Source: Candidatus Hadarchaeota archaeon (lineage in GTDB: Archaea > Hadarchaeota > Hadarchaeia > Hadarchaeales > Hadarchaeaceae). Taken from it: a stretch of DNA of 17,031 bases. The notes beneath the pieces are model-generated. The model was not told the DNA's origin. It made no database searches and saw only the letters and a list, made by a program, of their open reading frames with translations. A program made the position numbers and the translations under genes. The DNA lies in assembly GCA_040755315.1 (NCBI GenBank), contig JBFMBF010000025.1:1-17031 (forward strand). The letters are read 5' to 3'. Shown here piece after piece: positions 12,182-15,466 of the stretch (its first letter is position 1; every line of letters starts with the position of its first letter).

Positions 12182-14437
12182 TTAATAGTGCATCTTTGTC
12201 GTCTCTTCCGCCGCCCGCTTCACCCGCCTCTCCGAGAAATTTTCATACGCGCTATTCAGCTCGGCTGTGATGGATGGCCTGACAGACCCCATGGCCTCGC
12301 GGAAGTTGGAAAGCTTGACCTCCTTCCCCTTTATGTCCTTTCGAAGCACCAGCATTGCGGCCTCCCTGCATAGGGCGGCTATGTCCGCGCCGGAGTAGCT
12401 CTCCAGCTCCTTAGTGAGCTGCTTGATGTCAACATCTTTCGCAAGCGACATCCCCTTCGTGTGGATTTTCAGGATTTCCAGCCTGGCGTTTTCATCCGGT
12501 GCCGGAACTAGTATCAGCCTGTCGAACCTGCCTGGCCTGAGGAGGGCCGGGTCAACGAGGTCCGGTCTGTTGGTTGCGCCGACCACGACTATATTTTCCA
12601 GCTTCTCGAGGCCGTCCATCTCGGTGAGGAGCTGGCTTATGACCCTCTCGGTCACGTGGGAGTCGCCGAAACCAGAGCCGCGCCTCGGCACCAGGGAATC
12701 TATCTCGTCGAAGAAGATGACGGTCGGGGCGGCCATCTTTGCCTTGCGGAAGACCTCCCTGACCCCGCGTTCAGATTCCCCTACCCATTTGCTCAGCAGT
12801 TCTGGCCCCTTGATTGAGATGAAGTTTGCCTCGCTTTCGGTCACCACGGCTCTCGCCAGGAGGGTCTTGCCGGTTCCGGGGGGGCCGTAGAGGAGGATTC
12901 CTCGCGGCGGCTCTATTCCTAGCCTCTTGAAGGCGTCGGGGTGCTTCAGGGGCCACTCCACGGCCTCGCGAAGCTCCTGCTTGGCTAGGTCGAGGCCGCC
13001 TATGTCTTCCCAGCGGACGTCTGGAACCTCTATCAGGACTTCCCTCATGGCGGATGGCTCGGCCACCCTCATGGCGTTGTCGAAGTCGTCTTTCGTCACC
13101 TGTAGCTTTTCAAGCACCTCTGCCGGGATCTCCTTCTCCTCCAGCTTTATCTCGGGGAGGATTTTTCGGAGGGCGCTCATGGCGGCCTCCTTGGCCAGGG
13201 CCTCGAGGTCGGCGCCGACGAAGCCGTGTGTGATGCTGGCGTAGCGGTCCAGGTCGACATCCTTGGCCAGCGGCATCCCCCTCGTGTGGATCTGGAGGAT
13301 TTCCTTCCTGCCGTCCCTGTCGGGGACGCCTATCTCAATCTCGCGGTCGAACCTGCCCGGGCGGCGGAGGGCCGGGTCAAGGGAGTTCACGCGGTTGGTC
13401 GCACCGATGACGATCACCTTCCCCCTGGCCTTCAGCCCGTCTAGGGCGGTGTTCAGGGTGGCCACCACTCTCCTCTCGACCTCTCCCGTCACTTCCTCTC
13501 GCTTGGGGGCGATGGCGTCGAGCTCGTCGATGAACACTATCGAGGGGGCGTTCTTCTCGGCCTGCTCGAAGATTTCCCTTAGCCGCGCTTCAGACTCGCC
13601 GTACCATTTGCTCATTATTTCAGGGCCGTTGATTGAGGTGAAGTTGGCTCCGGACTCGTTCGCAACTGCTTTAGCTATAAGCGTTTTTCCAGTGCCCGGA
13701 GGGCCGTGGAGCAGCACCCCCTTCGGCGGCTCAATCCCCAGCCTGTCGAAGAGCTCTGGGTGCTTGAGCGGGAGCTCTATCATCTCCCTGACCCTCTGGA
13801 GCTCGTCCTTCAGCCCGCCTATGTCCTCGTATGTCACGGCCGGGACTTTTGCCTCCTTCACCTCGACGGCTTCCGGGAGAACCTCCACCTCTGTCGCCTC
13901 GGTGATCAGGACTATGCCGGCGGGGTTGGTGGCTGTGACGACGAATTTCAGCTCGCCCAGCCCGAATGGCCTGAGCACTGCACCGAAGCCGCCGAAAAGA
14001 TCTTGGAAGATGGATTCTTCGGGGGAGGTGGTGGCAATCAGATCCCCCTTTGTCAGGGGCCTTCCTAACAAGTTCCGGCTTACTTCCTCGCCGACCCCCT
14101 CCGGGTTCATGAATTTTATGTGGGGGTCAGCCGGGGCGATTGTCACCCTTTTGGCCTCCTTGACATCTGCCTTCCTCAGGGTCGCCTTCTCCCCGATGGA
14201 TGTCCCGGCGTTGTGGCGGATGAGGCCGTCTATCCTGACGATGGCCGAGCCCTCGTCCTGCGGGAGGCCCCTGATGGCCACCGCACCAGTCGGGCGGGAG
14301 CCTGTTATCTCGACGATGTCTCCCTGCTTCAAACCGAGCTTTTTCATTGTAGACTGCTCGATAAGGGCGAAGCCGCGGTTGACGTATGCCTGGTGGCGGT
14401 TCTCCGCCACGGTGAGCTTGAAATCTTTTTCTGACAT
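12182..14437 (-). CDS. cdc48: CDC48/VCP family AAA+ ATPase
   Basis: N domain plus two AAA modules (GPPGTGKT twice, [28 protein letters not shown]). Start reset to ATG 14437 (MSEKDFK) behind SD GGAGGAGTGA. Confidence 0.97.
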
Positions 14438-14439
14438 TT

Positions 14440-14706
14440 TCACTCCTCCACCCTGAACCTGAACCATTTCAGGTGCTCGTCGAACTCCTTAAAGATTTTT
14501 TCGACCATTCTGGCGTACTCCTCTTCTATCATGATGACGCTCTGGCTCACGCGCTCCCAGACATCGTCGGGGATCTCGTCGAGGATGCCGTTGGAGTGGC
14601 TTCTGCCCGATATCGTCTCGTAGTTGTAGCCGAAGAGGGCGCGGTAGAATGACGTCGCCGGGGTGCCGCGCGACTTCACGTCCCACACGATGAGGATTTT
14701 TGGCAT
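14440..14706 (-). CDS. Small hypothetical protein, Cas2/VapD-like ferredoxin-fold candidate
   Basis: 88 aa with TATA box upstream; stop 2 nt before the cdc48 ATG. N-terminal ILIVWDV and internal RVSQSVI resemble Cas2 motifs (fold call by eye only). Confidence 0.75.
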
Positions 14707-14713
14707 CGCTCTC

Positions 14714-14765
14714 TTGTTATATTTATAACAACTCCTTTTAAAGCTTTTGTTATATTTATAACAAC
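14714..14765. promoter_or_regulatory. Two identical palindromic operator-like sites flanking a TATA box
   Basis: TTGTTATATTTATAACAAC at 14714-14732 and 14747-14765 (8-2-8 perfect inverted repeat, 33-bp period); minus-strand TTTAAAA at 14736-14742 between them. Confidence 0.85.
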
Positions 14766-14930
14766 GATCCCGCGCCTTTACAAAGCCGGGTCGCCCAAAG
14801 TTTGGCCGGAGGCAGCGGGCCCCGTGACGTGACTAGTATTTTTCTGCAAATATTTCAAGTGTTTCAAGAGCCTCAGAACGAATATTTTCATCCTTTAAGA
14901 AGGGGGTCCGCCCAAAGGTTTGGCGAGAAG

Positions 14931-15419: not shown

Positions 15420-15466
15420 TGTCAAACGTTTGACATCCCTCAAACACGCGTGATAAACGTTTGACA
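15420..15466. repeat. Tandem 16-bp palindromes in a convergent intergenic region
   Basis: TGTCAAACGTTTGACA (15420-15435, perfect palindrome) and TGATAAACGTTTGACA (15451-15466, 14/16 identical), 31-bp period; extra partial half-site TCAAAC at 15440-15445. Confidence 0.85.

Follow-up and report, generated by a model that had tools for sequence, protein, structure and literature searches.

In this report, we describe a gene for an 88-residue protein at positions 14440–14706 (minus strand) of a 17,031-nucleotide stretch of DNA from a Candidatus Hadarchaeota archaeon; this entire stretch is referred to below as the window. From its translation, its homologues, and a structural model, the gene product is predicted to be a ferredoxin-fold (Cas2/VapD-like) protein and likely an operator-binding repressor. 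In the account that we consider probable from the arrangement of the DNA, the protein would act as a homodimeric repressor that binds palindromes at its own promoter and holds down the operon that it shares with cdc48.

The cdc48 locus and its upstream palindromes

The translation contains ILIVWD (ending in D9), FYRALFGY...GIL, and RVSQSVI, as was stated in the first-pass annotation of this DNA. The gene on its 3′ side (12182–14437, minus strand) was identified by a profile match (TIGR01243; 1087 bits relative to a cutoff of 803) as cdc48, which encodes a 751-residue AAA ATPase of the CDC48/p97/VAT type and is the likely co-transcribed target. The junction reads GTG GAG GAG TGA AA ATG, which confirms that the cdc48 start codon (14437) lies 2 nt past the stop codon. 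The Shine-Dalgarno-like GGAGGAGTGA (14440–14451, minus strand) overlaps this stop codon at a distance of 2 nt from the start of cdc48, and motifs of the GAGGTGAT type occupy the equivalent spot before cdc48 in the orthologues. An alternative upstream start for cdc48 at 14467 was ruled out by comparison with these orthologues.

From the 50 genomes with a match to the 88-residue gene, 45 loci were examined. In all 45, cdc48 is found downstream on the same strand, directly in 43 cases and after an intervening Hsp20-like gene in the other two (G007 and G042). The resemblance of the intervening gene to Hsp20 is weak (24% identity to the Hsp20 of the source genome and an E value of 5e-4 to NF041800). 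The translational coupling that had been proposed is consistent with the gaps of ~2–20 nt between stop and start codons in most genomes of family f1. It does not extend to the eight loci of family f3, where the gap is ~25–100 nt and contains a further palindrome in six of the eight, or to the two loci with the Hsp20-like insertion.

The neighbors of the gene in the window are cdc48 and an SNase-like gene, and no cas gene was found among the eight other window proteins that were scanned. No antitoxin-like partner is conserved at the locus, since the next gene is cdc48 or the Hsp20-like gene in the 45 loci. The earlier statement that cas1 and a CRISPR array are absent was found to hold for these window proteins but not for the genome, where a separate cas1 and canonical cas2 pair is located at a contig end (L200, contig C24 of the source genome). 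The pair is followed by an open reading frame that we take, from reading of the sequence, to be cas4-like. A repeat scan of the source genome assembly detected no CRISPR array.

Two exact copies of an 18-bp palindrome, TTGTTATA-N2-TATAACAA, were found upstream of the gene, in agreement with the palindrome noted earlier, with one copy on either side of a BRE/TATA-like element. The element (14735–14749, minus strand) consists of a BRE-like purine run and a TATA-like box (TTTAAAAG, 14742–14735) that is 36 nt before the ATG. The proximal palindrome (14714–14731) is located after the TATA-like box and before the start codon and covers the presumed transcription start, and the distal copy (14747–14764) abuts the BRE-like run. 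This putative promoter was assigned from its position and conservation, and TATA-like boxes are found ~40–46 nt before the start codon in most orthologues. In a shuffle test, 0 of 200 shuffled sequences gave a match to the palindrome, even when two mismatches were allowed.

At least one upstream copy of the palindrome was found in 42 of the 45 orthologue loci, and the three misses are explained by a contig end, a mis-set start, and a truncated gene. In a largely overlapping set of 39 loci, 38 have at least one copy and 19 have two. It is the proximal copy, on the start-codon side of the TATA-like box, that is almost always retained. Among 68 sites, variation is seen at the two central bases, and the outer arms (TTGTT/AACAA) are almost invariant. 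No palindrome was detected downstream of the gene in the 37 loci outside f3. A role as an RNA hairpin is unlikely, since the loop would be only 2–4 nt and the pairing is not kept by the central changes. Further upstream, a 34-nt imperfect direct repeat (14775–14808 and 14892–14925) was observed, each copy with a TATA-like box followed by CCCAAAG-N-GGCG. This leader motif also precedes several of the cassette genes described below and some genes for secreted or membrane proteins, and it is possibly a promoter class or another binding site.

A profile search detected orthologues in 50 of 66 Hadarchaeota genomes, and none of the cdc48-linked matches contains a stop codon. The palindrome pattern, which also catches the palindrome of a related family, was found in 48 of the 50 genomes with the gene and in 4 of the 16 without it; in one of these four (G028) the 5′ part of cdc48 is missing at a contig end. 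Completeness is at least 90% in 26 genomes; of these, 18 contain both the gene and the palindrome, with one gene cut by a contig end and one truncated, and the other 8 have neither. Both are also missing in all six gene-less genomes in which an intact region upstream of cdc48 was read. In these genomes cdc48 follows an Hsp20-like gene or what is presumably, from reading of the sequence, a deoxyhypusine synthase gene. Within genus g17, one genome (G057) has an intact cassette, one (G059) has an N-terminally truncated gene and a decayed proximal site, and one (G058) has neither. Because the genomes are kin, the co-occurrence represents approximately three independent absences (within g11, within g17, and in family f5), and a Fisher p value overstates it. 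The conserved linkage to cdc48 supports this part of the earlier interpretation.

The cdc48-linked proteins form one clade (44 rows, support of 100/100, short branches, with a bootstrap that had not fully settled), which includes one protein of unknown genomic context (P0034) and is represented by a single copy per genome. A search of 185,579 species genomes gave 39 loci, which are by title 37 of the Hadarchaeota type, one Methanobacteriota, and one bacterial. A whole cassette, with two operators, the gene, and a frameshifted cdc48, was found on a 303-kb contig of a genome labeled as a Terriglobia bacterium (L274); this occurrence is probably mis-binned or chimeric.

Predicted fold and relationship to Cas2 and VapD

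Searches of Pfam, NCBIfam, and PDB sequences returned no family for the 88-residue protein (P0001) or for its alignment, which agrees with the earlier suggestion of a possibly undescribed module. The profiles PF09827 and TIGR01573 matched neither P0001 nor any of 63 clade members at an E value of 0.1. The 26 close homologues are 67–88% identical, and all of those with a named taxon are from Hadarchaeota. A HMMER search of 1.84 billion representatives gave 10 matches, of which one is an unrelated repeat protein and one covers the C-terminal 36 residues only. The ESM Atlas gave unnamed clusters without a usable named match, namely the protein's own cluster (0.96), one rich in Nanobdellota (0.90), and one rich in Aenigmatarchaeota (0.89). 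No longer or fused form was found among 7999 longer candidates, which is weak evidence, and viral contigs gave a 13-residue match and nothing more. Searches of an open-access library listed no paper whose title or abstract opening describes the family; tables of archaeal dark matter or of Cas classification could list it.

The AlphaFold model, calculated with a 63-row alignment, has a pLDDT of 94.9 and contains, in order, a strand, a helix, an inserted β-hairpin (residues 26–39), a short helix, two strands, a helix, and a strand. A ferredoxin-like fold is well supported by this model. In Foldseek searches with both models, Cas2 structures were the top matches but were weak (best E values of 0.006 and 0.014; TM scores of 0.53–0.58). 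Using VIA-align with the first model, the best match was an uncharacterized ferredoxin-fold protein (Z of 7.9, rmsd of 2.0, 67 aligned residues), and Cas2 was not singled out, with Z scores of 6.1–6.5. Papillomavirus E2, EBNA1, and PaaX were absent among the Foldseek and VIA-align matches listed, and this absence excludes none of them. No helix-turn-helix was found by a domain scan or in the AlphaFold model, which shows a single-domain protein that lacks the winged helix and the C-terminal domain of PaaX. The Cas2/VapD-like fold proposed earlier stood as to the ferredoxin-like topology and the top rank of Cas2; the scores are weak and no Pfam match was obtained. From the model, kinship of the protein with Cas2/VapD is likely but not proven, and for the cdc48-linked clade it is drawn from the weak structural scores and the motif spacing, with no sequence match.

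In the alignments, D9 is invariant across 27 orthologues, and in a set of 20 diverse relatives both D9 and S56 are retained in 90% or more. The two residues occupy positions like those of D7 and S43, the residues given for VapD activity in the portion of PMC3351183 used here.

Related cassettes and dispersed palindromes

Five further small Cas2-like genes were found in the source genome, on contigs C8, C30, C42, C1, and C18, each with a different palindrome. The cdc48-linked gene thus belongs to a wider set of palindrome-bracketed cassettes, which the first-pass annotation had missed. A uniform test detected a repeated palindrome at all six Cas2-like genes. Of 1224 other genes called by a crude predictor, 2 were positive, and the palindromes at these two are copies of those found at the six genes. 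C42 and C1 were discovered as genes enclosed by pairs of palindromes, and the remaining four comprise the starting gene and three detected through protein similarity (C8 and C30 directly, C18 from C42). Palindromes lie on both sides of five of the six genes, and the cdc48-linked gene has them upstream only. For the C8 and C30 palindromes, all four copies of each (with at most one mismatch) sit at the cognate gene.

Group I comprises the 88-residue gene, C8, C30, and a form of 180–200 residues, and group II comprises C42, C1, and C18. PF09827 or TIGR01573 was matched by 15 of 21 group II proteins at an E value of 0.05, and C18 is narrowly above the Pfam cutoff for Cas2 (24.0 versus 23.8). A profile comparison of group I with group II gave a probability of 4%. 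Since the two groups are not linked by profile, their common origin is suggested by the motif spacing and the shared layout of the cassettes.

The subfamilies keep their own palindrome at fixed offsets despite differing genomic contexts. An automatic test of full-length paralogue reading frames detected a repeated palindrome at 11 of 23 in group I and at 19 of 22 in group II, with some of the misses stemming from the strictness of the test. No palindrome was found at three copies in genome G050 or at a glmM-linked subfamily. In G050 (L035, contig C24), three group I relatives without repeated palindromes are spaced ~2.2 kb apart among PIN-like and HTH-like genes. Relatives of 180–200 residues with an extra C-terminal region were observed at L064:884–1495, L091:1406–1963, and L084:1341–1904. 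The palindromes of this longer form are close to the cdc48 type, and in G056 it is located upstream of an Hsp20-like gene. In several genomes, the C42-type gene is preceded by a 107-residue gene (L073:163–483 on contig C42 in the source genome), which has no match in Pfam or NCBIfam and is a possible partner or cargo. The sequence GCTAAA[CT]ACGTAC recurs near many cassettes of different subfamilies (L135, L138, L165, L170, L177, and L181).

Dispersed copies exist for three of the palindrome families in the source genome. Two more exact copies of the cdc48-type palindrome were found, one 138 nt upstream of dnaG and one at the junction of two lipoate-ligase genes. Both positions recur in other genomes, for dnaG in several genera, but among 26 further dnaG loci a clear palindrome was found in only 4, and no fixed regulon is therefore shown. 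A global heat-shock regulon in the source genome was rejected, since a weight matrix gave four strong sites followed by a gap from 32.7 to 17.5 bits; the canonical hsp20 of this genome has no palindrome site. Within the window, two dispersed copies (15420–15435 and 15451–15466) of a different palindrome, TGTCAAACGTTTGACA, are found between the convergent SNase-like and UbiA-family genes, and the cognate Cas2-like gene is the one on contig C42. This palindrome occurs 15 times genome-wide (at most two mismatches), mostly in intergenic clusters of one to three. Many dispersed copies of the cdc48 type and of other families, whether solitary or grouped in small arrays, are located just past a stop codon or in the gap between two convergent genes, and up to 42 matches to the palindrome pattern were counted per genome. 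The one Y1 transposase of the source genome is located elsewhere, with its own hairpins. On contig C15 (L212), an IS200-type transposase gene has a short duplication at its 5′ end and an apparently broken frame.

Proposed function and comparison with known systems

The six palindromes differ, and each goes with one protein subfamily and disappears when that subfamily is lost; this is explained most simply if each protein binds its own. A palindromic site implies a dimer, as in Cas2 and VapD, and the positions of the palindromes at cdc48 point to autorepression of the operon. The predicted homodimer of the 88-residue protein would bind the palindromes flanking its own TATA-like box. Bound proximally, it would obstruct the start region; bound distally, it would overlap with the TFB element. 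The reading element is presumably helix 1 (residues 11–25), with the motif GxPATxFYRAL, which hardly varies within the cdc48 clade and differs in those relatives whose palindromes are different. The DNA-binding domains of papillomavirus E2 and EBNA1 are dimeric and ferredoxin-like and read palindromes via helix 1; these proteins are viral and would serve by analogy only as a precedent for this mode of binding. We know of no Cas2/VapD protein that binds double-stranded DNA in a sequence-specific manner. The 88-residue gene likely descended from mobile palindrome-bracketed cassettes and would have become fixed beside cdc48 early in Hadarchaeota. The first-pass annotation suggested three roles, of which that of an autoregulator is supported, as a prediction, by the operator position and the co-occurrence of gene and palindrome. 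Nothing was found in support of an adaptor or substrate of Cdc48, and the paralogues have their own palindromes with no cdc48 nearby; nor was support found for a stress-nuclease partner.

One point against a repressor is that palindromes after stop codons or between convergent genes make no sense for repression of a promoter. The palindromes could instead be mainly mobility sites, with the protein a site-specific nuclease or recombination factor that copies the cassette and seeds solo palindromes in a manner like REP/RAYT, and the copy at cdc48 an old insertion that simply supplies the cdc48 promoter. The paralogue cassettes are indeed patchy across the 66 genomes and occupy unrelated loci, with neighbors that differ by genome, and stops were found inside 7 of the best 23 C8/C30-type matches. 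Palindromes extend over start and stop codons, and local arrays reach six copies separated by unrelated spacers. The trpS-atpB junction is occupied by the C30 cassette in the source genome; in G031 it has a solo palindrome that belongs to a different subfamily, and in G030 it has no palindrome. Genome G049 has ~20 copies with the same asymmetric center, two of which bracket a 186-residue relative. The acidic residue after strand 1 is also kept. We nevertheless regard mobility as a rather unlikely main function, since no HUH or catalytic-tyrosine transposase motif is present in the alignments, the cdc48 clade is single-copy and lacks the downstream palindrome outside f3, and mobility alone leaves unexplained the phylum-wide retention of sites on both sides of the TATA-like box. 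It would still require that the protein bind the palindrome and so overlaps with repression. A broader and tentative proposal, improbable as a whole, is that bare Cas2-like proteins are minimal selfish elements in which a dimer reads its own palindrome, controls itself, and nicks or copies the palindrome or cassette via the conserved Asp. Such elements would resemble REPs but lack a transposase and would be candidates for the origin of the pairing of Cas2 with palindromic repeats in CRISPR, and one member would have been domesticated as the cdc48 regulator of Hadarchaeota.

It is quite unlikely that an unrelated regulator or recombinase binds the palindromes and that the 88-residue protein is a co-transcribed RNase, toxin, or Cdc48 adaptor or substrate. 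The stop-start overlap and the conserved synteny would fit a physical partner, and the conservation of D9 and S56 would fit a nuclease as well; Cas2/VapD proteins are reported as RNases or DNases in the portions of PMC11980593 and PMC3351183 used here. However, an outside binder would not predict six palindromes, one per paralogue, that travel with their own subfamilies, and near-complete genomes without the gene are also without the palindrome. In addition, cdc48 is not found near the paralogues, and the cdc48 locus lacks a conserved antitoxin-like partner. Binding of the palindromes by the protein could also lead to activation, or to a switch in which the distal site activates and the proximal site represses. 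Archaeal activators use positions immediately upstream of a TATA-like box, and this is where the distal copy at cdc48 and the sites before dnaG and in the lipoate-ligase region are located. Activation is very doubtful for the operon, since almost every orthologue retains the copy on the start-codon side of the TATA-like box and only about half of the loci have two copies.

By the features tested, the 88-residue protein is outside the HSR1/Phr family, Cas2 proper, PaaX, and RAYT. HSR1 (Archaeoglobus fulgidus) and Phr (Pyrococcus furiosus) are winged-helix proteins, whereas the 88-residue protein is predicted to be ferredoxin-like and is without a helix-turn-helix. The HSR1 operon presumably also holds cdc48. 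In the part of a review on archaeal heat shock that was available (PMC9133787), Phr and HSR1 are the transcription regulators named, and Phr is reported to block the polymerase from a site over the transcription start. As described there, these systems have a small autoregulatory gene heading a chaperone operon and an operator at or near the start site; the arrangement here is similar, with autoregulation as a prediction and a putative operator assigned by position. The hsp20-type gene that comes next in two examined genomes recalls HSR1, and the palindrome differs from CTAAC-N5-GTTAG and from the Phr site (PMC9133787, same part).

Relative to Cas2 and VapD, with which it shares the predicted ferredoxin-like fold and, in the case of Cas2, an Asp after strand 1, the 88-residue protein adds a β-hairpin and a cognate DNA palindrome and is without a Pfam or NCBIfam match. 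Its locus has no cas1, array, or antitoxin, and the cas1 of the genome has its own canonical cas2. VapD modules have an adjacent VapX, VapY, or VapW antitoxin, which is not found here, yet stand-alone VapD exists. In PaaX, a Cas2-like central domain (PF20803) is part of a repressor, and the likeness is that of a Cas2-like domain in a regulator; the 88-residue protein consists of the Cas2-like domain alone, the winged helix and the C-terminal domain both being absent. As with RAYT and REP in the portion of PMC2817692 used here, the genes are flanked by their own palindromes, the cognate palindrome differs by subfamily, and extra copies occur in intergenic clusters, often directly past stop codons. 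In contrast to that description, no HUH/tyrosine transposase and no GTAG head were seen, and the palindromes are nearly loopless (14–18 bp), number from 4 to ~40 copies, and include sites over promoters.

We have thus identified a candidate regulator of a chaperone operon that is built on a scaffold other than that of HSR1 and Phr. If binding of the palindrome is true, a stand-alone Cas2-type fold would read double-stranded DNA by sequence without a helix-turn-helix, and this would bear on the roles of Cas2/VapD proteins before CRISPR. The six protein-palindrome pairs found in a single genome would then provide a natural set of very small orthogonal repressors.
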